64,000 nucleotides of DNA. It comes from an archaeon (lineage in GTDB: Archaea; B1Sed10-29; JAJSAI01). The translations under genes were made by a program, and so were the position numbers. Below, one piece after another: positions 1,115 through 43,391 of the stretch (positions are counted from its first letter, which is position 1; each line of letters starts with the position of its first letter). Under the pieces are notes generated by a model, which saw only the letters and a list, made by a program, of their open reading frames with translations, was not told the DNA's origin and ran no database searches. The stretch is from assembly GCA_024274695.1 (NCBI GenBank), contig JAJSAI010000019.1:23265-87264 (forward strand). Reading direction: 5' to 3'.

Positions 1115-2230
1115 ATGCACTTCACTCTGCACAGACTGAACATCCTTTTGTCCGGGACAGAGACGAGAAGCATTTACGTTAACGGAATGATAAGATCTCT
1201 TGCCTTCGGAATAGCAGGGGTCTTCATACCCATATTCCTGCTGGAAAACGGCCTGCCCCTGCCAGGAATAGGCCTGTTTTACGTGACCCAGTACCTGTTT
1301 TTCGCGATATTCGCCCTGCAGAACACCTTTTTCGAGGAGCTCTTGGGAGGGATAAAGAAGATGATCATCGCAGGAACAGCGTGTTCCGCGATCTTCCTGG
1401 CCACTCTGGGAAGAGTCCCTGTCTGGATGTCTGCAATGCTCGCAGGAGCAGGGCTGGGGCTCTACTGGGTGTCAGTGAACACGGACTTTTCTCTGCACGT
1501 CCGGAAAGGGAAGGCTGGGAGCACGTTCGGGAAATGGACTTCCCTCGCCTCGGTCCCTGCCCTGTTCGCTCCCCTGCTCGGCGGCTGGCTGCTTGACGTG
1601 ATAGGCTTCAGGCTCGTGCTGTTCATTTCCTCAGGAATCCTCGCGCTGTCCCTCATTCCCTTCGTCCTGTCAGAAGACATTTTTGTGAGGCCCAGGAGGA
1701 AAATCAGAGAGGTCCTGGGAGGAGAGCTCTCGGCAGAGTTCATCCTGCAGGGAGTTGTGTTCATCGCCTTCATCCTCTGGCCGGTGTACATCTTCTCCAC
1801 CGGGAAAGACCTGCTCGTGGTGGGTGGTTTGTCAGTCCTCTCCTCCCTCGCCCTCATCCTCTTCAAGTACTCTTACGGCAGGCTGGCGGACAGGCTGAGC
1901 AGGCTCGCCCTCATGAAAGCAGGGGCTCTTCTTAACGCTGTAGTCTGGGTTCTGGCAATGCTCTCCGAGGACGTGGTGTCCCTTTCTGTGGTGTCCGTGC
2001 TGCTCGGGTTCACAGGGTCTCTTGTGGGCACGCCTTTGTTCGTCTTCTTCTCAGAGTACTCAAAAAAAGACCCTCTCGCCTGGATGTCCCTCAGAGAAGT
2101 CTCCCTGTGCCTGGGGAGGATAACAGCGGCCCTGCTGTTCTTCTGGTTCCCTTCCTTTGATTTCGCGTTCGCCCTGGCGGCCTTAGCCTCCGTGGGGCTT
2201 GCAATGGTAAAGCCAGTGCACTCTGAATAA
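1115..2230 (+). CDS. Polytopic membrane transporter, MFS-like, about 12 TM.
   Basis: 371 aa with repeated hydrophobic helices and a central charged loop. Ends in TAA. Confidence 0.55.
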   Translation: MHFTLHRLNILLSGTETRSIYVNGMIRSLAFGIAGVFIPIFLLENGLPLPGIGLFYVTQYLFFAIFALQNTFFEELLGGIKKMIIAGTACSAIFLATLGRVPVWMSAMLAGAGLGLYWVSVNTDFSLHVRKGKAGSTFGKWTSLASVPALFAPLLGGWLLDVIGFRLVLFISSGILALSLIPFVLSEDIFVRPRRKIREVLGGELSAEFILQGVVFIAFILWPVYIFSTGKDLLVVGGLSVLSSLALILFKYSYGRLADRLSRLALMKAGALLNAVVWVLAMLSEDVVSLSVVSVLLGFTGSLVGTPLFVFFSEYSKKDPLAWMSLREVSLCLGRITAALLFFWFPSFDFAFALAALASVGLAMVKPVHSE

Positions 2231-2260
2231 AATTTAAAGGAGTGTGTGATATAATTCCGC

Positions 2261-3301
2261 ATGGAGCCAATAGTTATAGTTGGTGCAGGCCCTGCTGGCC
2301 TATCCCTTCATGAGAAACTGTGCGAGTCTGGGATCAAAAGTTTGATCATAGAGCGTAAGAAAAGCGTTGGAGAATATGGCAATAGGGTAATAAATCTTGA
2401 TACTTTCAAGTTATTTGGATCTCCTGAAGAAATAATCTCTTATAAAATAGATGAAGTCGTGTTTTCTTCCCCTTCTGGTGAAAAGTTACGCGCCAAAAAA
2501 GAAAGGGGGTACGTTATTAATAAGAGGGATCTAGAATTATGCTTGCTTGATAGGATTTCTGAGCCTAACATAGTATATGGTAAGGCAGTAATAAAATTAA
2601 ATAAGAAAAAGAAAAAACTTCTTACTTCTGATGGGACGATCTTTTCTTATTCTATACTTGTAGGATGCGATGGAGTCCATTCTACAGTACGAAGTTCTGT
2701 GACAGATGAACAGATTAAGACAATAAATTGTTACGCGGAAGAATACGATGGCCAGGAACCCACTACCGTATTCGTAGAACCTGATTTGGCAAAAGGCTTT
2801 TATGGTTGGATAATGCCCCTGTCAGATAAGAGAATTGAGATAGGTATAGGTAGTGTCAACAGAGGAGTTTCCCAAAAAGAACTTTTTCATATCTTGAAAA
2901 AAAAACATGGATTAGATAAATATTCTAGGTCACTTAAGATAACGGGAGGAACACTTCCTGTAGACTTTCTGAAAAGAGAAGTGTATTCTGATATTGTTCT
3001 GATAGGGGATGCTAGTGGAGGAGAACCCGCAATGGGGGGATCACTTCACAAGACTGTTGATGAAGTTAATCTACTTTTCAATATTCTTTCTGAGAAAAAA
3101 AATTTAGAGGAGTATGATATCTTATGGAACGGATTTTTCCTTGAAGAGTTTAAAACTCAAAGAAAACTTAGAAATGCGATTGACTCTGCTACAGAGAAAG
3201 ATATTGACAAAGTGTTCAAAAAGTTACATAAAAAAAGATTACCTGATAAGGGGCTCGTTACCACTATATTTAAAGAGATTGCTCTTAATCTTGAAAAGTA
3301 A
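2261..3301 (+). CDS. FAD-dependent oxidoreductase of the geranylgeranyl reductase family. It is a second paralog and sits in the AT-rich island.
   Basis: N-terminal GAGPAG dinucleotide motif. GCDGVHSTVR, YGWIMP and GDASGG motifs are typical of GGR-family enzymes. Local GC is about 35-40 %. Confidence 0.6.
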   Translation: MEPIVIVGAGPAGLSLHEKLCESGIKSLIIERKKSVGEYGNRVINLDTFKLFGSPEEIISYKIDEVVFSSPSGEKLRAKKERGYVINKRDLELCLLDRISEPNIVYGKAVIKLNKKKKKLLTSDGTIFSYSILVGCDGVHSTVRSSVTDEQIKTINCYAEEYDGQEPTTVFVEPDLAKGFYGWIMPLSDKRIEIGIGSVNRGVSQKELFHILKKKHGLDKYSRSLKITGGTLPVDFLKREVYSDIVLIGDASGGEPAMGGSLHKTVDEVNLLFNILSEKKNLEEYDILWNGFFLEEFKTQRKLRNAIDSATEKDIDKVFKKLHKKRLPDKGLVTTIFKEIALNLEK

Positions 3302-3336
3302 AACTTTTTAATTTCTTTTAATTCTTTTGAAGAGAT

Positions 3337-3987
3337 ATGTTGACATATCCAGAATTAGTAAAGTTAATGCTTTCTGGGAAAATGAAGCTTTCTTTCGGAG
3401 AAATACTATTCCTTGGACATCCTTTTTCTCTGATGCCGATGTACTTTTACGAAGAACTTACTAAGAGACTTATTGAAGATCCTGAAGAAAGAGAAAAGGT
3501 ATATTTTGACGCATGGAAAGCGGGGTTTAAGTTTACCTTAGATATAGTGAACAAGTACTCTCTAGAAAGCTTTGAAGATAGATACAAACTTGCGATGGAC
3601 TTGGTGAGCATGTCTGGTTTTGGGGATTATAGAACGATTGAATTCTTTCCAGGTTACGCTATTTTCAAGATAATAAACAATCCATTTCCAAAATTATTCT
3701 ATCCCTCAAATCTTAAAGTTGATCACATTTTGAGAGGCATTAATGCGGGCGGCGGAACCGTTGTTCATGAAAGAATAATAAATTGTGTTGAATTGGAATG
3801 CGCTGCTGAGAACAGTAAATATTGCTTGCATGTGAACGGGAGTCAAAAATATTTAGAAGAAAGAATAGAAAATGAAAAAATTCTGGAAGAACAACTTGGA
3901 GATATTAAAAATCTTCAAAAGAAACAAGTTTCTTATTTGAAAAGGAATTACAAAAAAATATATAAAAAATATTCTATAGAAAAATAA
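3337..3987 (+). CDS. Hypothetical protein in the AT-rich island. It may be a small-molecule-binding V4R-like fold, but this is very uncertain.
   Basis: 216-aa ORF with a Cys-containing C-terminal segment INCVELECAAENSKYCLH. No confident family match from sequence. Confidence 0.35.
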   Translation: MLTYPELVKLMLSGKMKLSFGEILFLGHPFSLMPMYFYEELTKRLIEDPEEREKVYFDAWKAGFKFTLDIVNKYSLESFEDRYKLAMDLVSMSGFGDYRTIEFFPGYAIFKIINNPFPKLFYPSNLKVDHILRGINAGGGTVVHERIINCVELECAAENSKYCLHVNGSQKYLEERIENEKILEEQLGDIKNLQKKQVSYLKRNYKKIYKKYSIEK

Positions 3988-4819
3988 CAAACAATATTAA
4001 GAATAATAAAATTATTAAAATTCTTTCATAAGCATATACTTTAGTATAATTTTTTTGCCATGTTATTATTAGAGCTAAAATAATAAACAATAAACTAACA
4101 AGGGATATCACATGTTGATTAATGATTAATGTAAATAATCCTAATAAAAATCCTGAAGAAAGTATCCATTTTCGAACTATTCTCATACCCTTTTTTGTAC
4201 CATATTTTGTTGCCAAAGTCTTTTTTCCGTATACTGCATCGTATTTAGCATCTTTGAAGTCTTTAGTTGAGATGAGCGCGGAAATAAATAGCGTTAACAA
4301 AAAGAGGTTAACGATGAACTGAAAGCTAATCTGCTCAGTTAAAATTATTAGTCCCAATACTCCTGTCACAAAAAATGAGCCGTAAGCTAAGGTGATTGGC
4401 CCTACAAAAGGAATTCTCGCAAGCCATAGTGAGTAAGATATCCCTATTATAAGTAGTGAAAGAGCAAGCATTATACCCCAAAATCCTCCCATAACCCCAA
4501 CAACTAATCCAGAACTCCAGAGTATATACATCACTCTTTTAGCTTCGTGTATGCTGATTCTTCCAGAGGTAAGAGGTCTGTAGGGCATGCTTTTTTTATC
4601 TATCTTGTAATCAATTATATCATTTAGGATTGCTCCTGCAGAATACATGGAAAAGATGATTGCTGCAGAAATAGCAATTTTTGACCAATCAAATTCCTGA
4701 GCAAATGCTGCAGCATAGAACAATGCCAAGAAATAAATAAGGCTATTCCAAGGGCGCATAAGGTCTATGAAAGAAAGGATCTTATTTTTGGAGAGTTTTT
4801 CGGAAAAGAATTCTTCCAT
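3974..4819 (-). CDS. UbiA-superfamily prenyltransferase, digeranylgeranylglyceryl-phosphate synthase-like.
   Basis: About 9 TM. First Asp-rich motif NDIIDYKID and second motif KDFKDAKYD. AT-rich. Confidence 0.65.
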   Translation of the reverse strand: MEEFFSEKLSKNKILSFIDLMRPWNSLIYFLALFYAAAFAQEFDWSKIAISAAIIFSMYSAGAILNDIIDYKIDKKSMPYRPLTSGRISIHEAKRVMYILWSSGLVVGVMGGFWGIMLALSLLIIGISYSLWLARIPFVGPITLAYGSFFVTGVLGLIILTEQISFQFIVNLFLLTLFISALISTKDFKDAKYDAVYGKKTLATKYGTKKGMRIVRKWILSSGFLLGLFTLIINQHVISLVSLLFIILALIITWQKNYTKVYAYERILIILLFLILFVIFL

Positions 4820-4823
4820 AATT

Positions 4824-5654
4824 TCACTTTAGTAACAGGCTTCTTCCTTTTTCTGTGTTCACAACAATCCCTTTACCTCTTATTATGTCAAATGAGAAAA
4901 ATGCTTTTTCATGCTGAGTTAGTCTCATCTTTCTGATCTGTAAGTTTCGGGAGGACTCTCCTGCAATTCCAGTAAAGTATAGCAGAATTACTCCATCTAC
5001 CATAAACTCACTGAATGAGTCTCTACTAAGAGACTTAGAGTCTTCTAGCAATTCTGACGTGATCAGAACACTTGCTTTGGTATCTCTCAATGTTTTGAAG
5101 AGTCTCATGAGGATAAATTTGTTTATTAGTTTGTCGTTTAATGGAAGGGGTATTACAGTATCCTCTACAACGGTATAAGGTGTAGAAATAAAATGAGAAA
5201 AAATAGCGTTAAGGTCTCTAATCCCTTTTTGTGAAAGTATTGTTTCATATTTTTTTGGCAGGACCATAGAATAACTGTCTAACAGGGTTGTGACAGAATC
5301 TATCACAACTCTTTTTGGGCCAAACTTTTTACATTCCTCTTTAATTTTGTTGATCATACAACCCTCTTCAGGATTGAGAGAAATAACACGAAGTTTCTTG
5401 GATTTTTCATCTTTTTTCAAGTCTATATTAAACTGTTTGGCTTGTTGAATTATCATTTCTTCGGATTCTTCAGTGGTAAAGAAAAGAGTTTTCTCATTAT
5501 TTTCCGCCCCTGCATGTGCATAATGTATGGCAAATGTTGATTTTCCAGTTCCTGCCCCTCCAGATATGAGAATAATGCTTCCTTGAGGAAACCCTCCTTG
5601 TACAAGTTTGTCAAAGCCTTCGACACCTGTTTTTATTCTTTTCATAAGCACCAC
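4824..5654 (-). CDS. KaiC/RadB-like RecA-superfamily ATPase.
   Basis: GFDKLVQGGFPQGSIILISGGAGTGKST Walker A region typical of archaeal KaiC-like proteins. AT-rich. Confidence 0.65.
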   Translation of the reverse strand: MVLMKRIKTGVEGFDKLVQGGFPQGSIILISGGAGTGKSTFAIHYAHAGAENNEKTLFFTTEESEEMIIQQAKQFNIDLKKDEKSKKLRVISLNPEEGCMINKIKEECKKFGPKRVVIDSVTTLLDSYSMVLPKKYETILSQKGIRDLNAIFSHFISTPYTVVEDTVIPLPLNDKLINKFILMRLFKTLRDTKASVLITSELLEDSKSLSRDSFSEFMVDGVILLYFTGIAGESSRNLQIRKMRLTQHEKAFFSFDIIRGKGIVVNTEKGRSLLLK

Positions 5655-5702
5655 CGCTTATTAACCTCAAAAGATAAATTTATTTAAAACTTTTTTGATT
5701 GC

Positions 5703-7010
5703 TCATATGACGATCTCTTCCCCGGGCTCGGGAATGCTGTTCTGTATTCCCTTCTTTTCCAGGGTCCTGGAAAAGCTCTTCTGTTTCTCTTTCTCCCCGT
5801 GAACCAGGAACACCTGCTCCCGCGGATGGTTCTCTTTTATCCAGTTCAGCAGATCGTTCCTGTCAGCGTGGGCTGAGAGCCTGAGCTGGTGTACCCTGAG
5901 CTTTATTTCCACTTCCTCGTCCCCGATGATCACGTTCCTCGCTCCCTCTGATATCTGTCTTCCGAGAGTGCCTTCGGCCTGGTACCCTACGAGTATGACC
6001 GAGTTGTCCTTGTCTCCCGCCAGTTTTTTCAGGTAGTATACGCTAGGCCCTCCTGTCAGCATCCCGCTCGTGCTGACTATTATCGCCCTCTCTTTCTCCA
6101 GCACGTCCCTCCTGTCCTTGGTTCTCGGGGTCTTCCAGAACCTTGACTTGAATGGATCGTCGTCCGCGAGCAGGATCCTTCTTGGTATTTCCTCTTTTAG
6201 CCAGAGGACGTTGTGCCTGTATATCCTGCTCGCCTTTTTCACCATCCCGTCCGCGTAACCGTGCTCGTTGGAAAGGAATCCTGACCTGACGTAGTTGTCT
6301 ATGATCATCATGACCTCCTGTCCTCTTCCCACCCCGAAAACGGGGATGAGCACTTTCCCAGGAGTGCTCCTGATTATTTCGGCCAGTTCCCTTGAAACTG
6401 TTTTCAGGCTCGGCAGGAGATCGTCAGGACCAGAATAGGTTGACTCTGTTATAAGATAGTCTGTCCTGGGGATCTTTTTCTCCGCCCCGTACAAGAGGTT
6501 GGTTTCCCTCGTGTTCATGTCCCCAGTGTAGTACAGGCTCTTCCGACCCTTTTTCACCCTGAACCCTGCGGCCCCGAGTATGTGTCCTGCGTTGTAAGCG
6601 GTGACCTCGAACCCTGCCACCCTGACAGGCTTCTTGTACTCCAGGAAAGAGAACCTGGACAGGATCTTTTTGACATCGTTCCTGCTGAAGTTAATGTCCT
6701 TTTTCGCCACGCCCAGCCTGTAGTAGTCTGCCAGCAGGACCTGGACGAGGTCAAAGGTCGGCTTGGTGCTGTACACTTTCCCCCTGAACCCGAGCCTTTC
6801 CAGGTCAGGCAGGAACCCTGAGTGGTCAAGGTGGGCGTGGGTCACGAAAACGGCCTTAAGCGACCTCGCAATCCTCTCGTCCAGCAGGGGATACTCTTTA
6901 GGGTCTCCTAGTTTGACCCCGCAGTCCAAGAGAATCCTTTTCCCCTTGTCCTCCAGCATTACCGCCGATCTTCCGACTTCTCCGCAGGCTCCCAGAAAAC
7001 AGACCTTCAT
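5703..7010 (-). CDS. Metallo-beta-lactamase/beta-CASP ribonuclease (aCPSF2 / aRNase J-like) without KH domains.
   Basis: HAHLDHSG motif, beta-CASP region, and a C-terminal His motif LSAHAD. Confidence 0.7.
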   Translation of the reverse strand: MKVCFLGACGEVGRSAVMLEDKGKRILLDCGVKLGDPKEYPLLDERIARSLKAVFVTHAHLDHSGFLPDLERLGFRGKVYSTKPTFDLVQVLLADYYRLGVAKKDINFSRNDVKKILSRFSFLEYKKPVRVAGFEVTAYNAGHILGAAGFRVKKGRKSLYYTGDMNTRETNLLYGAEKKIPRTDYLITESTYSGPDDLLPSLKTVSRELAEIIRSTPGKVLIPVFGVGRGQEVMMIIDNYVRSGFLSNEHGYADGMVKKASRIYRHNVLWLKEEIPRRILLADDDPFKSRFWKTPRTKDRRDVLEKERAIIVSTSGMLTGGPSVYYLKKLAGDKDNSVILVGYQAEGTLGRQISEGARNVIIGDEEVEIKLRVHQLRLSAHADRNDLLNWIKENHPREQVFLVHGEKEKQKSFSRTLEKKGIQNSIPEPGEEIVI

Positions 7011-7066: not shown

Positions 7067-8452
7067 ATGGATCCGTTTGTAGTACTCGGGCTTGCCGCGC
7101 TGGCGGCCTTGGGAGCGTTCGTGGCCGCGATAGTTTACAAGGCGAGGAAGACCTCAGGGCCTACTGTTAAGGAGATAGAGTCCTTGTACGCCGAGTTCGA
7201 CAGGCTGATAAAAAGAAAGGCGAAGTACCTGTCAATGCTCGAGGTTCTTGATGACGCGAAGAAGTACGGGAGGATCTCCACGTCCCAGTACGCCGAGCAA
7301 GCGGGCAGGATAAAAAAGAAGGTTCAAGAGACAGACAAGAAAATTGATGAAGTGATCAGCAGGCTGGCGCTACCATACTACAAGAAGATACTGAAGCAAG
7401 AGACTGCTGTTGAAGGAAAGAAACTGAACTATCTGCTCGTGCTGCAGGAGGACAAGAAAAAACTGCAGCAGAAAGTGCTTGAACTAGAAAAGACCCTTGA
7501 CGCCCTCAGGCGGAAGCTCAAGATAACAGAAGAAGCTAGGGACGAGCTTGAAGAAGAGGTTAGGTCCCTGGAGGAAAAGCACAAGAACAGCATGCTCGAG
7601 ATGGAGTCCAGGCTTGATGCGGCAAGCAAGAAGATAGCTGCACTGCAGAACGAGCTTGAGGCCCTGCGCAAGGAAAAGGAAGAGATTGAAAGGAAACTGG
7701 TTGAAGTGTCGGAAAAAGAGAAGGAGTACAAGAAGAGAGCGTGGGCCGCTGAAAAACAGCTTGAGGCAAGGGGGGCTAAAGAGGAGGAAGTTAGCAGGGT
7801 TGTTGAAAAGTACAGCGCGGAGGAAGAGGAGCTGAAGAAGAGTCTTGAGAAGGCCAAGAAGAGGATGGAGGAGTACTATCACAAGATCCTGTTGTTGCAG
7901 ACCATAATAGACAGGTACGCTGACAAGATAGAAACAGAAGAGGCCAGGACCATTCAGCAGGTGAAGGAGAGCGTGCAGCCGAAGAACAAGAAAGTGCTTG
8001 AAGTGTGCGAGATAATAACGTCAGAAATCCCCGAGTACGATCCCAAGAGAGATCTTTTGAAAGCCTGCCAGCTCGCGTACGAGAGGGTTTCGGAAAGAAT
8101 AGCGTCCGTGAAGGGCCCGGGTATAACGTTCTGGATGACAATAGACGAGATCCTTGACAAGAGGATCGCGGACTACGAGGACAAGGCGATCCTCTTGTGC
8201 TCTGTCCTGAGGGCCTTAGGGGCCGACGCGAGCGTTCTCATACTCCAGATGTCGGACGGGGCCAACTTTCCGGTGGTAGAACTCAGGCACGGGGAAAAAG
8301 TTTACTGGCTTGACCCCAACCACCCGCACGAGTTCAACAAGTACTCTGCAGGTTCCCGGGAAGAGGTAATGAAAGAGTTCTCGGCAGAAGGAGCAAAGCC
8401 CGTGAGCGTGTTGTACGAGTTCAACGATCAGGAGTACAAGCAGAAGGAGTGA
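7067..8452 (+). CDS. Membrane-anchored long coiled-coil protein with a C-terminal transglutaminase-like (Cys-His-Asp) domain.
   Basis: N-terminal TM LGLAALAALGAFVAAIV, then about 300 aa of coiled coil. The C-terminus has AILLCSVLRALGADASVL...RHGEKVYWLDPNHPHE, which matches the transglutaminase core pattern G.C...LR..G / H.W.E...W.DP. Confidence 0.5.
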   Translation: MDPFVVLGLAALAALGAFVAAIVYKARKTSGPTVKEIESLYAEFDRLIKRKAKYLSMLEVLDDAKKYGRISTSQYAEQAGRIKKKVQETDKKIDEVISRLALPYYKKILKQETAVEGKKLNYLLVLQEDKKKLQQKVLELEKTLDALRRKLKITEEARDELEEEVRSLEEKHKNSMLEMESRLDAASKKIAALQNELEALRKEKEEIERKLVEVSEKEKEYKKRAWAAEKQLEARGAKEEEVSRVVEKYSAEEEELKKSLEKAKKRMEEYYHKILLLQTIIDRYADKIETEEARTIQQVKESVQPKNKKVLEVCEIITSEIPEYDPKRDLLKACQLAYERVSERIASVKGPGITFWMTIDEILDKRIADYEDKAILLCSVLRALGADASVLILQMSDGANFPVVELRHGEKVYWLDPNHPHEFNKYSAGSREEVMKEFSAEGAKPVSVLYEFNDQEYKQKE

Positions 8453-8458
8453 CCTCTG

Positions 8459-9142
8459 TTGCTGCAGGTGCTGCTCGCCACCCTGGCCGACAGTGTCATT
8501 GCACTTGTAGGAGTAGCAGCCCTCAAGGCCAAGAATCTTGAAAAAACATCCTCTCTTCTGGCTGCTTTTGCCGCAGGCACCCTGCTCGTCGGAGGCCTTG
8601 CCCACCTGTTCGCAGAATCTCTTGATGGGATAGGCGCGGACGCCGCAGTGCTCTTCTTTTTGATAGGGTTCTCCTTCTTCCTGTTGTTAGAGTTCTTCCT
8701 GAAATGGCACAAGTGCGGGTGCAAGGCAGAGCCCTTCACTTACATGATACTCTTGGCCGACGGGGTGCACAACTTTTTTGACGGCGTTATAATCGGGGCC
8801 AGCTTTCTGGTGAACCCCTTGTTCGGCTGGATCACCACCGGGCTCATAATACTGCACGAGGTGCCCCAGGAACTGGGAGACTTTGGGATCCTTGTCCAAG
8901 GAGGGCTCGGGCCGGCCAAGGCCCTGGCATACAATCTCGCTTCCCAGCTCTCGTGCGTTCTCGGAGGGGTCCTGGGATGGTTTGCTGTTGTTGGGGTGGT
9001 CCCGCATGCCCTTGCGTTCTCTGCAGGCGGGTTCGTGTACATAAGCGCGGCTGACCTCGTGCCCAGGATGAGGGACAATGCAGCTGTGATCGCCTTCTTT
9101 TCTGGCCTGATCCTGTTAGAAGCGCTCAAGATAGTTTTATAA
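8459..9142 (+). CDS. zupT: ZIP-family zinc/iron permease (ZupT-like).
   Basis: HNFFDGVIIG and HEVPQELGDFGIL signatures. About 8 TM. Confidence 0.75.
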   Translation: MLQVLLATLADSVIALVGVAALKAKNLEKTSSLLAAFAAGTLLVGGLAHLFAESLDGIGADAAVLFFLIGFSFFLLLEFFLKWHKCGCKAEPFTYMILLADGVHNFFDGVIIGASFLVNPLFGWITTGLIILHEVPQELGDFGILVQGGLGPAKALAYNLASQLSCVLGGVLGWFAVVGVVPHALAFSAGGFVYISAADLVPRMRDNAAVIAFFSGLILLEALKIVL

Positions 9143-9163
9143 ATTAATAAAATTATAAAATTT

Positions 9164-9571
9164 GTGATGGATGTTCTCGCCAATTTTGAGGTCTTGTTCA
9201 AAGCAAGGGGCCTCTCAGCGGTCCACGGCAGAGTGTTCGGCACCCTGCTCTTGTCAGGAGCGCAGATGACGCAAAAGCAGATAGCCAGAGAATCAGGGTA
9301 TTCCGTCCCAGCGGTGAGCATTGCCCTTGACGAGCTCGTCAAGCTTGGGCTGGTAAAAAAGAGGAAAAAACAGAGGACCTTCTACTACTCTGCCGACGCG
9401 GACCTCCCTAAAATAATGCACGACTTCCTTAAAACAATAAAAAAGGACTACGTGGAGCCCTTCCTCCGGGAGATAAAAGAGTACCCGAGGACGGAGCCCG
9501 TGAAAAAGTTTGAGAAGAGCATGAAAAACCTTGACAATTACCTGTCAAGATTACTGGAGGTGCGAGTATGA
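9164..9571 (+). CDS. Winged-helix transcriptional regulator.
   Basis: HTH segment QKQIARESGYSVPAVSIALDELVKLGLV. Co-directional and tightly packed with the ferredoxin/GGR genes. Confidence 0.45.
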   Translation: MMDVLANFEVLFKARGLSAVHGRVFGTLLLSGAQMTQKQIARESGYSVPAVSIALDELVKLGLVKKRKKQRTFYYSADADLPKIMHDFLKTIKKDYVEPFLREIKEYPRTEPVKKFEKSMKNLDNYLSRLLEVRV

Positions 9572-9753
9572 CCAAAGGAGTTTTTATTGACAAGACCAAG
9601 TGCATGTACTGCGGAGGGTGCACAGCAGTATGTCCTGTCAACGCCCTCGAACTTAAGGAGACGTACATAGAGTGGGATCCTGAAAAGTGCATATACTGCG
9701 GGGCGTGCGAGAGGTTCTGCCCCGCTGGAGCAATAAAGGTGGTGAGAGAATGA
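9568..9753 (+). CDS. Small 2x[4Fe-4S] ferredoxin, partner of GGR.
   Basis: Two CxxCxxCxxxCP motifs (CMYCGGCTAVCP, CIYCGACERFCP). The stop overlaps the GGR ATG as ATGA at 9750-9753. Confidence 0.75.
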   Translation: MTKGVFIDKTKCMYCGGCTAVCPVNALELKETYIEWDPEKCIYCGACERFCPAGAIKVVRE

Positions 9754-10958
9754 GACAATGGCTTCAGGAAGAGTATGATGTCATAGTCGTCGGGGCCGGG
9801 CCCGCTGGAAGCACTGCCGCGAGAGAGTGCGCTAAACGGGGCCTGAAAACCCTGGTCCTTGAAAAAAGACAGGAGGTAGGAGTCCCGAAAAGGTGCGGGG
9901 AAGGACTAGGAGAAGGCTGGTGCAGGATAGCAGGAATAACCCCTGACCCGAAGTGGGCGAGGTACGAAATGCACGGGGCAGTGCTCTGGTCCCCCTCCGG
10001 CAAAAAAGTGGTGATACCCACGCCCACGAAAGGCTGGATAATAGAAAGAAGAGTCTTCGACAAGTGGCTGGCCGAGAAAGCGGTCATGGCAGGAGCGAGG
10101 ATGATAACCAAGGCAAGAGTCATAGGAGTCATAAAAGAAGAAGACACAGTAAAGGGTGTGATCGTGGAAACCCCTGACGGGGACTTCGAAGTCATGGCAA
10201 AGATAGTGATAGCCGCTGACGGGGTTGACAGCAAGACCGCAAAGTATGCTGGGCTTAACACAGTAAACCCCGCCACCGAAATAGACTCAGGGTACCAGTA
10301 CGAGATGGTCGGTCTCAAGATCCCAGAGCCCACGGACATGATACACCTGTACTTCGGGTGGGACGTTGCCCCCAGGGGATACGTCTGGATATTCCCGAAA
10401 GGACCTGACCACGCGAACGTGGGAATAGGGATAGGCGGGCACATTGACAAGGGAACCGCAAAAGAATACCTTGACAGGTTCATAGAGTCCCATCCCGAAA
10501 TCTTTGAGAACGCTGGGATAGTAGAAGTGAACGCGGGAGGAATCCCTGTAGGCGCTCCCCTGAAAAAACCGTACGCGAACGGCCTGCTCGTGATAGGAGA
10601 CGCCGCGCACATGGTCAACCCCATACACGGCGGAGGAATAGGCACTGGCATGGAAGCAGGAATACTCGCGGCAGAGATAGCTGAAAAAGCAGTGAGGTCC
10701 GGCAATGTTTCAGAAGACGTCCTGAAAGAGTTCGCGGAAAAGTGGTACGAGAAGAGAGGAAACCAGTTGCTCCAGGTGCTCAAGGTCAGGAAGTTCTTCG
10801 AAGACCTCACGGACCAGGACATGGAAAAACTAGCGGACATACTGGACGACAAACAGCTCCTGCTGGACTTCGCGGACGGCAGGAGGACAGCCGCGTTCCT
10901 GAAGTTCCTGGCCAAAGCGCCCAGGATCGCGCTGAAGGCGGCAAAGCACCTCAAGTGA
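9750..10958 (+). CDS. Digeranylgeranylglycerophospholipid (geranylgeranyl) reductase.
   Basis: DVIVVGAGPAGSTAA FAD motif, plus YVWIFPKG and GDAAHMVNP motifs of archaeal GGR. Confidence 0.8.
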   Translation: MRQWLQEEYDVIVVGAGPAGSTAARECAKRGLKTLVLEKRQEVGVPKRCGEGLGEGWCRIAGITPDPKWARYEMHGAVLWSPSGKKVVIPTPTKGWIIERRVFDKWLAEKAVMAGARMITKARVIGVIKEEDTVKGVIVETPDGDFEVMAKIVIAADGVDSKTAKYAGLNTVNPATEIDSGYQYEMVGLKIPEPTDMIHLYFGWDVAPRGYVWIFPKGPDHANVGIGIGGHIDKGTAKEYLDRFIESHPEIFENAGIVEVNAGGIPVGAPLKKPYANGLLVIGDAAHMVNPIHGGGIGTGMEAGILAAEIAEKAVRSGNVSEDVLKEFAEKWYEKRGNQLLQVLKVRKFFEDLTDQDMEKLADILDDKQLLLDFADGRRTAAFLKFLAKAPRIALKAAKHLK

Positions 10959-11006
10959 AACCCAAAAACCCTCCTTTTATAATCTTCTCCTGAGTCTATT
11001 ACCAGG

Positions 11007-11936
11007 ATGAAGACAAGACCTGTCCTAACGATAGCACTGATCCTTCTCACGCTGGGCACCTACTTCGCCTTCAGTAACGCGTACCTGTACATCCGCCAAG
11101 ACAGGCTGCTTGCTCTGGCGTTCTCCTGGCACAACGTCTTCCCTGGAATAATCACGTACATGTTCGCTCACATAGGACTAAAGCACCTGTTCGGCAACAT
11201 GCTCCTCCTCCTTCTGGTAGGAGCAATCTGCGAGGAAAAACTCAGGAAAAAAGACTATCTTGCGATATACTTTGCCTCGGGGGCGGCGGGAGCTGTGCTG
11301 TTCTCGGCAATAAACCCTAACGTCGCGCTGGCAGGAGCCAGCGCATGCATCGCGGGCCTTATGGTTCCTGCAATGATAATAAACACGCGGCGGTTCGTGC
11401 TGGGAATGATCCTGGTTGCGGTTTTCTCCACGACAGTCATGATGCCGGTCCTGACAGTATTCTCAGAATCCTTGCACCAGAAGACGGTTAAGGAATACAC
11501 TGTCCTGAAACAGGAGTACGAGAACGTAACAAAAGAAAAGCAAGAGCTTCAGACAATAATACTGGAGCTGAACAAGACCGAAGAAAAGGTTAGGGAAAAG
11601 CTTGAGAAGGGAGAGATAACGGAAAGAGAGTATATGATTATAATCCAGAACGTGAGCTTGCAAAGGAACGCCACGCTGGCCAAGCTCGCTGAAAAAGAAC
11701 AGGAAGAGAAAAAGGTCAGTGAAGGGGTGAACAAGACCCTTGAGCTCAAGGAAAACCTTGAGCAGGGGATAGAAAGAGAAAAAAGGATGGTCACCAGCGT
11801 GCTGGTGCACGCTCTCGGGTCGGTGGTTGGTGCAACATACCTGCTGTTGTTCAGGAGGGACATCCTGTACGACGCTGTCTTCGAATGGAAGAACGCTGCA
11901 TGGAGGTTGAAAAAACGCTTAGCACGATCTTCTTGA
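11007..11936 (+). CDS. Rhomboid-family intramembrane serine protease with a roughly 130-aa sequon-rich coiled-coil insertion before the last TM.
   Basis: FAHIGLKHLFGNMLLL signature, GASA(C) active-site region, and HALGSVVG His-helix. The insert carries 5 N-x-S/T sequons. Confidence 0.5.
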   Translation: MKTRPVLTIALILLTLGTYFAFSNAYLYIRQDRLLALAFSWHNVFPGIITYMFAHIGLKHLFGNMLLLLLVGAICEEKLRKKDYLAIYFASGAAGAVLFSAINPNVALAGASACIAGLMVPAMIINTRRFVLGMILVAVFSTTVMMPVLTVFSESLHQKTVKEYTVLKQEYENVTKEKQELQTIILELNKTEEKVREKLEKGEITEREYMIIIQNVSLQRNATLAKLAEKEQEEKKVSEGVNKTLELKENLEQGIEREKRMVTSVLVHALGSVVGATYLLLFRRDILYDAVFEWKNAAWRLKKRLARSS

Positions 11937-12904
11937 GGCACCTGGCAAGAGAACTGGACTCTGAGCTATCAGGAGGGTTCTTCGATAAAGCGCAGCAGAT
12001 AGGGCCCGCGGAGTTCAAGCTCTCATTCCGCACGAAGGCAGGGAAGAAGGATGTTATTGTAAGGCTCCCTGGGCTCGTGAACATCACCTCATACAAGATC
12101 CCTGCCCCGAGAAAGCCGAGCAACTTCGCCATGAAGCTGAGGAAGGAGATCTCAGGCAAGAAAGTTCTGGCAGTGAAGCAGCACGACTTCGACAGGGTCA
12201 TCGTGCTCGACTTCGGCGAAAAAAAGCTCGTGATAGAGCTCTTCTCAAAAGGGAACCTGGTCCTGACAAAGGACGGCAGGATACTCGCCGTTTTCAGGTC
12301 AGAAGAGTGGAGGGACAGAAAACTACGGTTCGGGGAAGAGTATGTCTTCCCGAAGAAAAAAGCAGACCCAGAGTCAGAAGACTTCCGGGAAATGCTCTGC
12401 AGAGAAGGAGAAAGGGCCCTCGCCCTTGCTGTGGGCAAGGAGAACGCGAGGCTCCTGCTGAAATCGCTTGGCATCCCGCAAGGTCAGAAGGAGTACTCTG
12501 AAGAACAGGCCGGCAGAATACTCTCCCGGCTGGAAGAGATTCTAAACTCTGACACCAAGCCAGTGGTGCAAGAGGGCATACTGCTGCCGGTCCCCATCCT
12601 GTCCTCAGAGCCGGAGAAGGAGTACAGGACAGCGAGCCAGGCAGTGGACGAAGAGCACCCTCCTGAACTGAGAAGAGAGGAAGGGAAAGAGTCCAAGCTT
12701 CAGAGGATGCTGGAAATGCAGAAGAAGACCCTGCAAGAGTACCAGAAGAAAGCAGAGGAAGAAAAGCAGATAGGTGACCTGATAATGCAGAACGCTCACG
12801 TGATAGCAGAGGCCATAAGGCTATTCAAAGAAAAGGACGTTAAGGGCCTGGAAAGGCTGGGGGCGAGGATAACCAAGGACGGAAAAATAGAGATAGACCT
12901 CTGA
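11900..12904 (+). CDS. NFACT-N (FbpA/Rqc2-like N-terminal) domain protein with a coiled-coil tail. It is shorter than full-length archaeal NFACT.
   Basis: N-terminal pattern LSTIFLRHLARELDSELSGGFFDKAQQIGPAEFKLSFR resembles NFACT-N. Confidence 0.45.
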   Translation: MEVEKTLSTIFLRHLARELDSELSGGFFDKAQQIGPAEFKLSFRTKAGKKDVIVRLPGLVNITSYKIPAPRKPSNFAMKLRKEISGKKVLAVKQHDFDRVIVLDFGEKKLVIELFSKGNLVLTKDGRILAVFRSEEWRDRKLRFGEEYVFPKKKADPESEDFREMLCREGERALALAVGKENARLLLKSLGIPQGQKEYSEEQAGRILSRLEEILNSDTKPVVQEGILLPVPILSSEPEKEYRTASQAVDEEHPPELRREEGKESKLQRMLEMQKKTLQEYQKKAEEEKQIGDLIMQNAHVIAEAIRLFKEKDVKGLERLGARITKDGKIEIDL

Positions 12905-12949
12905 CCTGCTGACGAAGATTCTGAGAAACGGTTCGGCTGGACGAAAAAA

Positions 12950-13273
12950 TCAGGAGATCAGGCTCTCGTCAACCACTATAACGTCACTGACGGCGAAAAC
13001 AGACTTGTAAGGAACGTGCCCGAGTTTTCCCACTTTCTGGAGTCTGCTGGCAGTCCTTGAGTCGCTGTTCACCTCTATGAGCAGGCCTTCTATCCTCCCT
13101 GTCTCCTCGTCTATGGTCAGGTCCGCGAGCCTGCCCAGTTCCTCACCAGAGTTTGTGATCACCCGTTTTCCCCCGAGCTGCCTGGCTATCACGAACTTCT
13201 TTGAAGCCATTAAACACCACCTTCTGGAATAAAATGCCTGCACTGTATTTAAACATTTCCCCCAAAAAACCAT
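12950..13273 (-). CDS. PRC-barrel domain protein.
   Basis: 107 aa with GKRVITNSGEELGRLADLTIDEETGRIEGLLIE, typical of PRC barrels. Confidence 0.5.
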   Translation of the reverse strand: MVFWGKCLNTVQAFYSRRWCLMASKKFVIARQLGGKRVITNSGEELGRLADLTIDEETGRIEGLLIEVNSDSRTASRLQKVGKLGHVPYKSVFAVSDVIVVDESLIS

Positions 13274-13332
13274 GTTACGTCAAAAGACGAACCCGAATCC
13301 GTTAGTTATTTAAACTTGTTCTTGTCTTATGC

Positions 13333-14376
13333 TTGCTCGTGGCAGGCATTGTTGGTTACGGAGCGTACGTGCCCAGGTACCGGATAAAGGTTGAAGAGAT
13401 CGCGAGAGTGTGGAACAAGGACCCTGAGGCGATCAAAAAGGGATTGAACCTTCTAGAGAAAAGTGTTCCCGGTCTGGACGAGGATTCCGTGACAATCGCT
13501 GTTGAAGCGAGCAGGAACGCGCTTTCCCGCGCTGGAATAAGCCCTGAAAAAATAGGGGCTGTTTTCGTCGGTTCAGAGTCTCCTCCTTATGCTGTCAAGC
13601 CCTCTGCCACCATAGTAGCTGAAGCAATAGGCTCTGTCCCAGTGATGATGGCTGCTGACCTGGAGTTCGCGTGCAAGGCCGGGACCCAGGCGGTTCTGAA
13701 CTGTATCGGGCTCGTGGACTCAGGGATGATAGATTACGGACTGGGAGTAGGATCTGACACGAGCCAGGGCAGGCCTGGAGACGCGCTTGAGTACTCTGCT
13801 TCAGCCGGAGGGGCGGCGTTCATCATAGGGAAGAAGGACGCGCTCGCGGAAGTGGAAGAATTCTACTCCTACACCACGGACACTCCCGACTTCTGGAGGA
13901 AAGAAGGTCAGGAGTACCCGCGGCACGGGGCAAGGTTCACGGGAAGGCCCGCGTACTTCAAGCACGTGCTCAGCGCGAGCAAGGGGGTCATGGAAAAAGG
14001 AGGATACTCTCCCAGCGATTTTGACTACGCTGTCTTCCACCAGCCCAACGGAAAATTTCCCCTGCTCGCGGCAAAACAGTTGGGCATACCAAAAGAAAAA
14101 GTCCTGCCAGGCCTCCTGAGCCCGGTGATAGGGAACACGTACTCAGGAGCGACCCTGTTGGGTCTCGCGGCAGTCCTTGACAGGGCAGGTCCCGGGGACT
14201 TGATCCTCGCAACCTCTTACGGTTCTGGCGCGGGATCAGACGCGATGGTTATCAGGGTCACTGACAGGATAGAAGAAAAAAGGGACAAGGCACCCAAGGT
14301 TGAGGAGTACGTCTCACGCAAGAAGCACGTGACGTACGGGGAGTACGTGAAGCTCAGACGCAAGCTCAAGGTGTGA
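13333..14376 (+). CDS. HMG-CoA synthase (archaeal mevalonate pathway).
   Basis: Start [15 protein letters not shown] and catalytic Cys region [11 protein letters not shown]. Adjacent to thiolase and DUF35, as in the known archaeal thiolase/HMGCS/DUF35 complex. Confidence 0.85.
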
Positions 14377-15560: not shown

Positions 15561-15979
15561 AAAGCATGGCAGAACAGGGGAGCATTCCACTCATTTGGAG
15601 GAGGTATCCTCAGAGGTACAGGCTGGAAGGGAACAAGTGCGAGAACTGCGGGACCTACTTTTTCCCTCCCAGGCTCGTGTGCCCGAATTGCAGGAGGAGA
15701 GGAAGCCTTACCAAGCACGTTTTCTCAGGGAAGGGAGTTGTGGAATCCTACACGGTGGTCCACGTTCCTCCTGACGAGATGGCGGGCCAGGAGCCCTACG
15801 TGCTCGCACTAGTGAGACTGGAAGAAGGTCCTGTAGTTACAGCAGTAGTAACAGACGTTGACCCAGAAGACGTGAAAATCGGGACAAGGGTCAGGCTCGC
15901 GTTCAGGAGAATATCAGAACAAGGAGAGAGCGGTCTGGTGTGCTACGGGTACAAGTTCGCGCCCGAGAAAGGATTTTAA
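15557..15979 (+). CDS. DUF35 Zn-ribbon/OB-fold scaffold protein of the thiolase/HMGCS complex.
   Basis: CENCGTYFFPPRLVCPNCRRRG zinc ribbon followed by an OB-fold. ATGA overlap with thiolase. Confidence 0.8.
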   Translation: MKSMAEQGSIPLIWRRYPQRYRLEGNKCENCGTYFFPPRLVCPNCRRRGSLTKHVFSGKGVVESYTVVHVPPDEMAGQEPYVLALVRLEEGPVVTAVVTDVDPEDVKIGTRVRLAFRRISEQGESGLVCYGYKFAPEKGF

Positions 15980-25689: not shown

Positions 25690-25746
25690 CCAGTATGCTA
25701 CTCTCTTCTCATTATTTAAAACGGTTCCCAGGAGAATCAGGTTTTG

Positions 25747-25775
25747 GGAGGATCCTTCTTGTGAAAGGATCCTCC
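25747..25775. promoter_or_regulatory. Perfect 11-bp inverted repeat (GGAGGATCCTT-N7-AAGGATCCTCC) upstream of the adenylate-kinase gene. Candidate regulator binding site.
   Basis: Read directly from the sequence. The centre is about 68 bp upstream of the adk ATG. A TTTAAATA TATA-like element lies between it and the ATG on the minus strand. Confidence 0.4.
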
Positions 25776-43385: not shown

Positions 43386-43391
43386 GACGGT

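Follow-up and report, generated by a model that had tools for sequence, protein, structure and literature searches.

A low-GC block in a Micrarchaeota genome: probable recent insertion of a conserved archaeal four-gene module of isoprenoid-lipid type

The window analysed in this study is a stretch of 64,000 nucleotides from a member of the Micrarchaeota (DPANN), a tiny symbiotic archaeon. Close to one end of it, four genes lie in a block whose base composition is quite different from that of its surroundings. An earlier note on this DNA had proposed that these are ether-lipid genes acquired laterally by a reduced archaeon, and the identity of the host agrees with the last part of that guess. 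The locus thus raises two questions, namely whether the block came from outside and what its genes might do together. We consider it probable that positions 2231-5702 are a recent lateral insertion carrying one copy of a conserved archaeal module of isoprenoid-lipid type. The features on which this reading is built are as follows.

1115..2230, plus strand: host MFS transporter, left flank (PF07690; GC3 0.72; C-terminus intact)
2231..5702, no strand: inserted foreign block, bounded exactly on each side by the stop codon of a convergent host gene
2231..2260, plus strand: AT-rich left spacer, 30 nt; TATA-like TTTAAA at 2233-2238, about 28 nt upstream of the flavoprotein ATG; putative imported promoter
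2261..3301, plus strand: GGR-fold FAD flavoprotein, 346 aa, short and divergent (GxGxxG, FYGWIMP and GDASGG motifs)
3337..3987, plus strand: divergent V4R / XylR_N-type ligand-binding protein, 216 aa (profile, fold and blastp evidence)
3974..4819, minus strand: UbiA-superfamily membrane prenyltransferase, DGGGP-synthase-like, 281 aa (Asp-rich motifs NDIIDYKID and KDFKDAKYD)
4824..5654, minus strand: single-domain KaiC-like RecA-superfamily ATPase, 276 aa (Walker A GGAGTGKS, TEES, Walker B)
5655..5702, minus strand: AT-rich right spacer, 48 nt, reading TTTTAAATAAATTTATC and then GAGGT on the minus strand, with GAGGT 9 nt upstream of the GTG start of the KaiC-like gene; putative imported promoter and ribosome-binding site
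5703..7010, minus strand: host beta-CASP ribonuclease (aCPSF1-like), right flank (Beta-Casp, RMMBL and Lactamase_B Pfam matches; GC3 0.71; C-terminus intact)
9568-9753: ferredoxin partner of the native GGR, 61 aa, 2x[4Fe-4S]
9687-10958: native host GGR, composition host-like

The roles given to the two spacers are suggested by their letters only.

Composition and insertion site of the block

The block comprises 3,472 bp with a GC content of 34.3 %, compared with 53.3 % in the rest of the window. Against the other windows of 3.47 kb (mean 0.533, sd 0.015, minimum 0.501), its value of 0.343 corresponds to z = -13.0, and its strand-symmetric tetranucleotide distance was 0.0556, compared with 0.0132 +/- 0.0013 elsewhere (maximum 0.0170; z = +31.5). 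The GC profile falls from 0.55-0.58 to 0.24-0.38 across about 2230-5700 and then returns to 0.53-0.54; no other part of the 64 kb falls below 0.45 when 1-kb windows are used. The GC3 values of the four genes were 0.30, 0.30, 0.30 and 0.31, and those of the remaining 63 called ORFs ranged from 0.45 to 0.77. The codon preference of the island is the inverse of that of the host, as reflected in the fractions of AAA for Lys (0.73 vs 0.36), AAT for Asn (0.65 vs 0.09), TTA for Leu (0.24 vs 0.01), AGA for Arg (0.69 vs 0.25) and TTT for Phe (0.69 vs 0.20). The fall in GC across four genes and the codon usage heavy in AAA, AAT and ATA had been noticed by eye; the sliding GC, tetranucleotide and codon checks then proposed bear this out, that is, the composition is not uniform and the island stands out.

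The edges of the block lie at the stop codons of the MFS transporter (2228-2230) and the beta-CASP ribonuclease (5703-5705, minus strand), just as the earlier note had placed them. In L001, a related Micrarchaeota MAG, the flanking synteny is kept over eight genes with 60-89 % amino-acid identity. The MFS ortholog of L001 is 63-74 % identical and ends in KPVHRD-stop (KPVHSE-stop in the window), and the ribonuclease is 80 % identical and ends in GEEVEI-stop (GEEIVI-stop in the window). In this one related genome, on which the empty-site comparison rests, the two stop codons overlap (GATTAGAT) with zero intervening sequence, so that the block is missing from a conserved site. Because the syntenic site is empty, the block is an insertion. 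The absence of mobile-element signs remarked on earlier was also found here: the block carries no integrase, the 64-kb window contains no tRNA, and no meaningful repeats flank the block. An Rfam search gave no match, and a link of the block to a virus or plasmid was looked for and not found. No recombinase was found either, and the mode of integration can only be proposed; the block would have landed in the zero-length gap between the two convergent host genes, damaging neither.

The suggested lateral acquisition is strongly supported by the extreme composition, by the empty site in L001 and by the low identity between the island and native GGR-type proteins described below. The donor was probably an unsampled low-GC archaeon. 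No donor was identified; identity to the nearest homologs is only 36-50 %, and in the trees for V4R-like, KaiC and UbiA proteins the window sequence sits on a long branch. That Micrarchaeota have gained lipid and mevalonate genes laterally is known from earlier work (Krause et al. 2022, PMC8975820), and the present case shares with it the host phylum and the transfer of isoprenoid-lipid genes to a DPANN archaeon whose lipid pathway is incomplete. Those transfers, however, came from Thermoplasmatales hosts, are older and are now host-like in composition, and in this the native GGR resembles them, whereas the window block is compositionally fresh, points to a much lower-GC donor and holds a different four-gene module.

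Products of the four genes

The four genes had been read as a GGR-like protein, an unknown protein, a UbiA protein and a KaiC-like ATPase, and this content stands. The flavoprotein scored 103.7 bits against TIGR02032 (cut-off 158.8) and did not match the GGR catalytic-domain Pfam PF22578. Its AlphaFold2 model (pLDDT 88.8) had the Thermoplasma DGGGPL reductase 3OZ2 as best Foldseek PDB match (TM 0.87, rmsd 3.2), above the hydroxylases (TM 0.60-0.72); by sequence, its PDB matches include aromatic hydroxylases with E-values like those of GGRs. Its close homologs number only five, at 34-36 % identity. Compared with canonical GGRs, the protein is about 50-100 residues shorter, and the Cys conserved in GGRs is absent, the window protein reading GEYGNRV where that of L010 has PCGG. 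The flavoprotein component is of three dissimilar types across the cassettes.

A GGR of native composition with its ferredoxin is indeed present at 9568-10958, as noted before; the island flavoprotein, in contrast, has no ferredoxin partner. The island and native proteins are about 23 % identical and are therefore distant xenologs, not recent duplicates. Thus, of the alternative "xenolog or paralog", the former remains and a recent duplication drops out.

The prenyltransferase matched PF01040 (E = 2e-31), and its best NCBIfam match was PRK12884 (94.8 bits, cut-off 269); its scores of 73-95 bits lie far below the equivalog cut-offs of 269-353. Its sole PDB sequence match was the DGGGP synthase of M. 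jannaschii (MjDGGGPS, 6M31); the alignment runs from end to end and keeps both Asp-rich motifs in register. The family profile matched 6M31 with E = 9e-28 and chlorophyll synthase with E = 3e-23, and the models for ChlG/BchG and homogentisate phytyltransferase were matched by all six cassette UbiAs compared.

The second gene is present as claimed, but its product need no longer be called unknown, since profile and fold place it among V4R/XylR_N-type ligand-binding proteins. A direct Pfam search gave no match, V4R included, whereas blastp aligned it with a Pfam-recognised V4R protein of L010 (38 % identity over 87 aa, E = 1e-10). In a profile search of 1.84e9 representatives, 17 were found at E<1e-30, and the weaker matches that were sampled carry Pfam V4R. 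The AlphaFold2 model (pLDDT 81.5, pTM 0.83) shares its fold over about 195 residues (TM 0.67-0.72) with the XylR_N+V4R regions of MopR, PoxR and DmpR, whose sensor domains were the top Foldseek matches (E = 3e-8); stand-alone archaeal V4R proteins (MJ1460) and Bet3/TRAPP belong to the same group of known relatives. The closest structural relatives are phenol binders, not lipid binders. Unlike MopR, PoxR and DmpR, the protein stands alone, without AAA+ or DNA-binding output domains. H144, E145, E152, C155 and C163 are invariant, and the resulting E-x2-C-x7-C sits at the position of the Cys cluster described for V4R (PMC5847659), although the first Cys of that cluster is not conserved.

The ATPase matched PF06745 (E = 1.3e-50) and scored 109-124 bits against archaeal KaiC NCBIfam models, under their cut-offs of 248-307. 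Its identity to KaiC genes from cassettes at other loci is 32-40 %.

Recurrence of the module in other archaea

The four components were found together in about 20 distinct loci. In varying order, V4R-like, KaiC-like, UbiA and flavoprotein genes co-occur in L003, L007-L011, L013-L016, L018, L019, L021-L024, L035 and L036; in L036 the V4R-like slot is occupied by a Pfam-recognised V4R protein. In most loci the V4R-like gene lies directly 3' of the ATPase gene (16 loci, gap -4 to +15 nt), and the window copy, in which the two are apart, is an exception. UbiA is replaced by soluble proteins with a DDxxD-type motif in L016, L021 and L024. A polyprenyl synthase adjoins or sits near the cassette in five loci, and a CrtI-like oxidase adjoins the V4R-like gene in L017. 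These replacements and neighbours speak for a link of the module with isoprenoids.

The module is also a low-GC island in L007 (GC3 0.28-0.41 vs 0.60-0.78 in the surroundings), L008 (0.31-0.35 vs 0.56-0.68) and L022 (0.27-0.29 vs 0.43-0.69), and probably in L019. None of these hosts has flanking genes that are close orthologs of window genes, and the hosts are therefore different lineages. In the low-GC hosts L003, L009, L010 (Diapherotrites), L011 and L024 the module has native composition, and in L015-L017 the cassette genes have a native high GC3; low GC is therefore not intrinsic to them. Since the island is seen in at least three, and probably four, other higher-GC lineages, the module has been transferred repeatedly. 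That is, the four genes are a conserved, repeatedly transferred module and not accidental cargo. Because the same set was freshly imported in several unrelated archaea, it seems to be an isoprenoid-lipid unit that travels. We found no published description of this module, and no papers that pair V4R with UbiA, or "hydrocarbon binding protein" with KaiC.

Possible function of the module and other readings

In the reading we prefer, UbiA would use a prenyl diphosphate to attach a polyprenyl chain to a lipid-like acceptor, the closest precedent being GGGP to DGGGP, and the flavoprotein would then saturate double bonds in that chain. The V4R protein may bind a hydrophobic substrate, product or signal, and the KaiC-like ATPase may couple this binding to regulation or hand-over; the two are probably a ligand sensor or carrier pair. 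DGGGP synthase (6M31) and GGR (3OZ2, 3ATQ) form the same enzyme pair with the same order of chemistry, prenyl transfer before saturation. The earlier term "ether-lipid genes" thus holds as far as UbiA is closest to MjDGGGPS and the flavoprotein has the GGR fold, but both are far below the curated family cut-offs, and for this reason we only infer the isoprenoid-lipid function and the substrates. A connection with lipid exchange between symbiont and host, which the note had also raised, is speculative. Moreover, the canonical pathway genes lack the association with KaiC-like and V4R-like genes that marks the island pair, and GGGP synthase was found in none of the cassettes examined. A role of archaeal KaiC-like ATPases as hubs of signal transduction has been put forward by Makarova, Galperin and Koonin (2017, mBio; cited in PMC8978795). 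The likeness is a single-domain KaiC/RecA-type ATPase gene beside the gene of a putative input (ligand-binding) protein; in the literature searched, we found no account of a partnership with V4R-like, UbiA and GGR-like proteins.

The same laterally acquired module might instead serve to make or modify a pigment or a prenylated compound of aromatic or quinone-like type, not a membrane ether lipid. The V4R-like protein would bind a phenolic acceptor, UbiA would prenylate it, as UbiA, MenA and chlorophyll synthase do, and the flavoprotein would tailor ring or chain. The phenol-binding sensor domains among the structural matches, the scores of the cassette UbiAs against chlorophyll synthase, ChlG/BchG and homogentisate phytyltransferase, the aromatic hydroxylases among the flavoprotein matches and the CrtI-like oxidase of L017 agree with such a product. 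BchG (UbiA family), BchP (GGR family) and BchJ (V4R family) act jointly in bacteriochlorophyll synthesis, BchG as the prenyl (esterifying) transferase and BchJ, it is thought, in handling a hydrophobic intermediate; this three-superfamily likeness points the same way. The cassettes, however, have no tetrapyrrole genes nearby, their hosts are non-phototrophic archaea, and the KaiC-like ATPase is an obligatory partner. We regard an aromatic product as unlikely, since the best full-length PDB match of UbiA is DGGGP synthase, which it fits better than chlorophyll synthase, the flavoprotein is clearly closer to GGR than to the hydroxylases and has the GGR-type YGWIMP and GDASGG motifs, and aromatic-precursor or ring-modifying genes do not recur beside the cassette.

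It is very unlikely that the cassette is a conflict, defence or symbiosis-specificity module, in which the KaiC-like and V4R-like proteins would sense, the membrane enzyme would act as effector, and arms-race selection would drive frequent transfer. The sporadic distribution with repeated recent import would suit this, as would the Fic, MazE/PemK and large methyltransferase genes adjoining the cassette in L011, a low-GC STAND-NTPase-like gene near it in L022 and a weak PADLOC match of the KaiC-like protein to mad8 (E = 6e-7). But that match is at the P-loop level only, the other three proteins had no significant PADLOC match, the neighbours in most loci are housekeeping or isoprenoid genes, and we know of no UbiA or GGR-type defence effector. 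Even less credit is due to the view that the block is ancestral, lost by precise deletion in the L001 lineage and kept at low GC by selection, or that it is a chimera of metagenome assembly. In favour of such a view, the empty site was seen in one related genome only, and even in some low-GC hosts the cassette is a little richer in A+T than the sequence around it (L003: 0.27 vs 0.31). Against ancestry, an ancestral gene would not have kept a GC3 difference of about 0.38, the host-like cassettes of L015-L017 do not require low GC, and a deletion must have left both neighbouring genes intact with their stops overlapping. For a chimera, two misjoins would have to fall exactly on two stop codons, and the same island pattern occurs in independent NCBI and JGI assemblies.

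A foreign block between two host genes

We analyzed the four-gene block at 2231-5702 of the window, whose genes are laid out as two convergent pairs. It is listed below with its host neighbours.

Features of the island and its surroundings in the window
1115-2230, plus strand: MFS transporter
Island ends: AT-rich outer spacers of 30 nt and 48 nt, each with a TATA-like element
2261-3301, plus strand: flavoprotein with the fold of geranylgeranyl reductase (GGR), N-terminal GxGxxG (VGAGPAG)
3337-3987, plus strand: V4R-like protein, 216 aa, assigned by transitive homology and fold
3974-4819, minus strand: UbiA-superfamily prenyltransferase, PF01040 E = 2e-31, both Asp-rich motifs
4824-5654, minus strand: single-domain KaiC-like ATPase, 276 aa, PF06745 172.4 bits
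5703-7010, minus strand: beta-CASP ribonuclease
9164-9571: MarR-like regulator, native composition
9568-9753: 61-aa 2x[4Fe-4S] ferredoxin, native composition
9687-10958: host GGR, native composition

The GC profile changed from 0.55-0.58 to 0.24-0.38 and then to 0.53-0.54 across positions ~2230 to ~5700, and this stretch was the only one in all 64 kb with GC below 0.45 in 1-kb windows. The GC of the block was 0.343, compared with a mean of 0.533 (sd 0.015, minimum 0.501) in the other 3.47-kb windows (z = -13), and its tetranucleotide distance from the rest of the window was 0.0556 against 0.0132 +/- 0.0013 (z = +31.5). The GC3 values were 0.30-0.31 in the four island genes and 0.45-0.77 in the remaining 63 called ORFs. 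Synonymous codon preference was inverted between island and host, as seen in the fractions of AAT for Asn (0.65 vs 0.09), TTA for Leu (0.24 vs 0.01) and AGA for Arg (0.69 vs 0.25). The edges of the island coincide with the stop codon of the MFS gene (2228-2230) and that of the beta-CASP gene (5703-5705, minus strand). The earlier note had described a low-GC island with exact boundaries at both stops, and quantification bore this out in every particular: the composition is clearly non-uniform. No drift of the block toward host base composition was visible. The TATA-like elements of the spacers are putative promoters. Elsewhere, mild GC dips were seen at 25001-26500, 42501-43500 and 50001-51500 (0.47-0.48 vs a window mean of 0.52), which are far weaker than the island.

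A relative of the flanking beta-CASP gene was sought in a scan of one genome per species. One close relative, with 80 % identity, was obtained on a 112-kb contig of a Candidatus Micrarchaeota MAG (L001). This contig shares with the window eight syntenic flanking genes of 60-89 % amino-acid identity, including the orthologs of GGR (89 %), the MarR-like regulator (76 %), a ZIP transporter (84 %) and a coiled-coil protein (71 %). The MFS and beta-CASP genes of L001 are convergent, with overlapping stop codons (…GATTAGAT…). Their counterparts in the window are parted by 3,472 bp, and both C-termini match those of L001 (KPVHSE*/KPVHRD* and GEEIVI*/GEEVEI*).

The empty site in L001, the synteny and the foreign composition together indicate that the island is an insertion in the lineage of the window. 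That is, the four-gene block is a fresh foreign insertion, and the earlier note was right to read it as a lateral acquisition: the block is absent between the same two genes of a relative. A precise deletion in L001 would be a very unlikely origin for this arrangement, and so would an assembly chimera.

Two classical marks of a genomic island, atypical composition and absence at the same site in L001, are thus present. The classical marks of a mobile element (integrase or recombinase, tRNA target, direct repeats, carriage by a virus or plasmid) were not found. The island ends show no duplication, repeat, tRNA or recombinase gene; the tRNA scan of the 64 kb gave none, Pfam and NCBIfam showed no integrase or recombinase among the four island genes, and the repeat search detected no flanking direct repeats, as the earlier note had stated. 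The Rfam search gave no match that accounts for integration or regulation. A sigma-70 promoter and terminator scan, whose sigma-70 model is not suited to archaea, gave shuffle-level signal and nothing explanatory. A cassette marker protein had no match in IMG/VR, INPHARED phages or PLSDB plasmids, and the island DNA had none in PLSDB.

Two observations were made on the flanking genes. The MFS ortholog of L001 (11305-12168) lacks an equivalent of residues ~130-246 of the window protein, and the DNA there is AT-rich (GC 0.33-0.36); this gene may be decaying or restructured. The coiled-coil protein of the window (7067-8452, 461 aa), which adjoins the beta-CASP gene, has a C-terminal CEP76-type peptidase-like domain (PF24656, E = 3e-8).

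The four proteins of the block

The folds and catalytic motifs of all four proteins could be recognized. The 216-aa protein, left as unknown in the earlier note, was identified solely by transitive homology and by comparing folds. It had no match in direct Pfam and NCBIfam scans, even at E = 10 and with the V4R model (PF02830) included, and its family profile found nothing among PDB sequences at E = 10. By blastp, it matched a Pfam-annotated V4R protein in a Diapherotrites MAG (L010) with 38 % identity over 87 residues (E = 1e-10). Out of 1.84 billion representatives, the family profile matched 17 at E<1e-30 and 453 at E<1e-3. Of ten sampled profile-search matches, seven were hit by Pfam V4R, in some cases over the cut-off, and a sampled member of the core family (P0025) had a sub-threshold V4R match of 24.1 bits vs a cut-off of 31. 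The structure model (pLDDT 81.5, pTM 0.83) was aligned by Foldseek over ~195 residues with the XylR_N+V4R sensor domains of MopR, PoxR and DmpR (TM 0.67-0.72, E = 3e-8), followed by weaker matches to the MJ1460 V4R protein and Bet3/TRAPP. Homology to V4R and the same predicted fold were thus found, and direct Pfam detection was not.

V4R, PoxR and MopR have a conserved three-Cys cluster, which is a zinc site (PMC5847659). At the position of this cluster, E152-x2-C155-x7-C163 is invariant in the V4R-like family. The first Cys of the cluster is not conserved in the family, and His-144, which is invariant, may stand in for that Cys.

The UbiA protein has the fold of its superfamily and both Asp-rich motifs (NDxxDxxxD and DxxDxxxD). 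The sequences NDIIDYKID and KDFKDAKYD are invariant in 6/6 cassette UbiAs and align with the motifs of the DGGGP synthase structure of M. jannaschii (6M31). This enzyme was the sole match among PDB sequences, with an end-to-end alignment. The family profile gave E = 9e-28 against it and 3e-23 against chlorophyll synthase. On the DGGGP-synthase equivalog models PRK12882/12883/12884 the island protein stayed below the cut-offs, with 94.8 bits on the best model, PRK12884 (cut-off 269), and 73.4 and 50.3 bits on the other two (cut-offs 296 and 353, respectively). None of the other cassette UbiAs scored better than E = 6e-32 on these models or came near the equivalog cut-offs, and no GGGP synthase was seen in the cassette neighbourhoods.

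The AlphaFold2 model of the flavoprotein (pLDDT 88.8) has a PHBH-type FAD fold nearest to the solved GGRs. Its best PDB match was 3OZ2, the digeranylgeranyl-phospholipid reductase of Thermoplasma acidophilum (TM 0.87, rmsd 3.2 Å, E = 1e-22), and aromatic hydroxylases gave TM 0.60-0.72. The best NCBIfam match, the GGR superfamily model TIGR02032, reached 103.7 bits against a cut-off of 158.8, and the GGR catalytic domain PF22578 (GGR_cat) had no match in this protein, compared with 86.5 bits in the native GGR. Close homologs among 5.8 billion clusters were five only (34-36 % identity); several of the next, distant matches have a GGR catalytic domain. GGRs carry the motifs YxWxFP and GDAAG and a conserved Cys near the flavin. 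The island protein has FYGWIMP and GDASGG, and the Cys position reads GEYGNRV in it and in the protein of locus L003, and PCGG in that of L010. Since the fold match is accompanied by scores under the cut-offs, the protein is, on its model, GGR-fold, yet membership in the curated GGR family could not be demonstrated. The native GGR and its ferredoxin, which the earlier note had contrasted with the island gene, are present as claimed; a recent duplication of the host GGR is ruled out as the source of the island gene, because the two proteins are only ~23 % identical.

The KaiC-like ATPase has the KaiC/RecA P-loop motifs intact, namely Walker A (GGAGTGKS), EE (TTEES) and Walker B (RVVIDS). It lacks the two tandem domains of the clock KaiC, and its scores on TIGR02655 and PRK09302 (92.4 vs 546 and 149.8 vs 408 bits) were under the cut-offs, as were those on archaeal KaiC subfamily models. 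A KaiC-like paralog of native composition is located at 57787-58479 (230 aa, GC3 0.63) and is only 28 % identical to the island protein.

A recurrent module and its repeated transfer

We surveyed the contexts of homologs of the V4R-like protein, UbiA and the flavoprotein, together with 23 metagenome loci that were retrieved by the V4R-like profile and then searched with HMMs of the four island families. The same four families occurred together repeatedly across these loci. The canonical order, KaiC, V4R-like, UbiA and flavoprotein on one strand, was found in L010 and L011, and rearranged cassettes in L003, L007, L009, L013-15, L019, L022, L035 and the window. The V4R-like gene directly followed the KaiC gene in 16 loci, with a gap of -4 to +15 nt, and in L036 and L037 its slot is filled by a protein that Pfam recognizes as V4R. 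Five loci (L021, L022, L023, L024 and L035) have a polyprenyl-diphosphate synthase beside the cassette or close to it, and a CrtI-like oxidase is a neighbour in L017. UbiA is absent from three loci, where its slot is taken by a soluble protein without a Pfam match.

Proteins in the UbiA slot
L021 8162-9448 and L024 8727-10010: 427-428 aa, 59 % identical to each other
L016 8587-9573: 328 aa, similar motifs

These proteins are helical and have two Asp-rich motifs of the DDxxD type (e.g. GIDDYVD … DILDIKTD). The family may be an unrecognized class-I isoprenoid synthase-like enzyme.

Constant membership with fluid gene order speaks for a functional linkage to isoprenoid chemistry. The four genes form a conserved four-part module, and this module is associated with prenyl-diphosphate supply. 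Searches of the literature for V4R with UbiA, or for "hydrocarbon binding protein" with KaiC, found nothing, the 2017 mBio paper on KaiC neighbourhoods lying outside that search. No description of the module was found in the literature searched, and recognition of the recurrently transferred KaiC-like/V4R-like/UbiA/GGR-fold set is what the present analysis adds.

Two further neighbours were observed. In two unrelated hosts, a NUDIX hydrolase gene adjoins the cassette or lies close by (L003 12679-13095; L007 9052-9552, of host composition with GC3 0.60), and it is possibly linked to prenyl-diphosphate metabolism. In L010, a beta-CASP ribonuclease gene (5009-6283), 36 % identical to that of the window, lies directly upstream of the cassette. 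This shared adjacency is probably a coincidence; the beta-CASP gene of the window is native and came to adjoin the cassette by the insertion.

The composition of the cassette differs among hosts. In the low-GC hosts L003, L009, L010, L011 and L024 the core cassette is at native composition (GC 0.29-0.34), and in the higher-GC hosts L015 (0.60-0.66), L016 and L017 it is native with high GC3. Three other higher-GC hosts carry it as a sharp low-GC island: L007, labelled Marsarchaeota (GC3 0.28-0.41 vs 0.60-0.78), L008 (0.31-0.35 vs 0.56-0.68) and L022, on a 111-kb contig (0.27-0.29 vs 0.43-0.69), together with the related L020. The cassette of L019 is probably such an island too. The flanking genes of the island hosts have no close orthologs in the window, meaning that these hosts are different lineages. 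As the cassette is low in GC in several hosts, we considered whether this is intrinsic or selected; the host-like high GC3 in L015-L017 rules this out.

In NJ trees, the island copies were scattered among native low-GC copies, and the window copy formed a long branch. Its nearest relatives, from these trees and nearest-neighbour identities, showed only 36-50 % identity, so the donor is not among the sampled genomes. In L022, the composition switches exactly at the boundary of the KaiC and V4R-like genes, and a host-type polyprenyl synthase and KaiC are kept. A resident cassette thus seems to have been partly replaced, in contrast to the empty site found for the window. The L022 locus (7196-14641) also contains a second low-GC gene (GC3 0.27) for a 1008-aa STAND-NTPase-like protein, beyond a CBS gene of intermediate GC3 (0.53), and it looks like a hotspot for foreign DNA.

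Possible function and host context

The folds and motifs are consistent with the following course. UbiA would transfer a polyprenyl group to a lipid-like acceptor, the closest precedent being DGGGP synthase, and the GGR-fold flavoprotein would reduce double bonds of the prenyl chain. The V4R-like protein may bind a hydrophobic substrate, product or signal, and the KaiC-like ATPase, tightly coupled to it, may transduce or power that step. The label of lipid biosynthesis given in the earlier note is plausible in view of the GGR fold and the DGGGP-synthase-like UbiA, but it is unproven, both proteins being under the curated cut-offs. The principal rival keeps the lateral transfer and takes the product to be a prenylated aromatic or quinone-like compound. 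Its grounds are that relatives of the V4R-like protein bind phenols and that UbiA resembles chlorophyll synthase and homogentisate prenyltransferase, and it has a precedent in the BchG/BchP/BchJ triad, in which the same three superfamilies act together. A role in defence or conflict is weakly suggested by some cassette neighbourhoods, but PADLOC gave no convincing match to a defence system.

As for prenyl-lipid chemistry, its furthest-reaching form is that the set is an unrecognized, self-contained mobile archaeal module. Such a module would synthesize or modify a prenyl lipid, controlled by a sensor or carrier of hydrophobic ligands that it brings along, and would be swapped among DPANN and other archaea without a recognizable mobility gene, sometimes replacing part of a resident cassette in place. 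We regard this as rather unlikely. Micrarchaeota and other DPANN archaea are believed to rely on their hosts for membrane lipids, and which lipid steps are kept, lost or imported is central to understanding that dependence. If such a module exists, lipid-dependent symbionts could adapt the chemistry of their membranes when they change host or habitat.

The locus is a very clean, datable case of fresh import, since the empty site in the relative is nucleotide-exact. The module was imported independently by several lineages, and a gene set is thus seen to move between archaeal genomes without recognizable mobility machinery. In this module, a prenyltransferase and a GGR-fold reductase are joined by a ligand-binding V4R-type protein and a KaiC-like ATPase. 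This gives one branch of the large, uncharacterized archaeal KaiC-like and V4R families a candidate function and brings into view a UbiA subfamily without a known substrate. If the cassette performs ordinary lipid finishing, it adds modestly to what is known of the lateral movement of lipid genes into Micrarchaeota. Published work (PMC8975820) documents that Micrarchaeota have gained lipid and mevalonate genes laterally, so the import of lipid-type genes by a DPANN archaeon is not new in kind. The same paper describes GGR transfer from Thermoplasmatales to Micrarchaeota, and the native GGR of the window fits this transfer because its best NCBIfam model is the Thermoplasmatales-type DGGGPL reductase (280.8 bits, under the cut-off of 780).

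At 13333-15979 of the window, an HMG-CoA-synthase-like gene, an acetoacetyl-CoA thiolase gene and a 140-aa ORF stand in a row at host composition. Because the first two belong by similarity to enzyme families of early mevalonate synthesis, the host appears to keep at least some isoprenoid-precursor capacity within 10 kb of the island.
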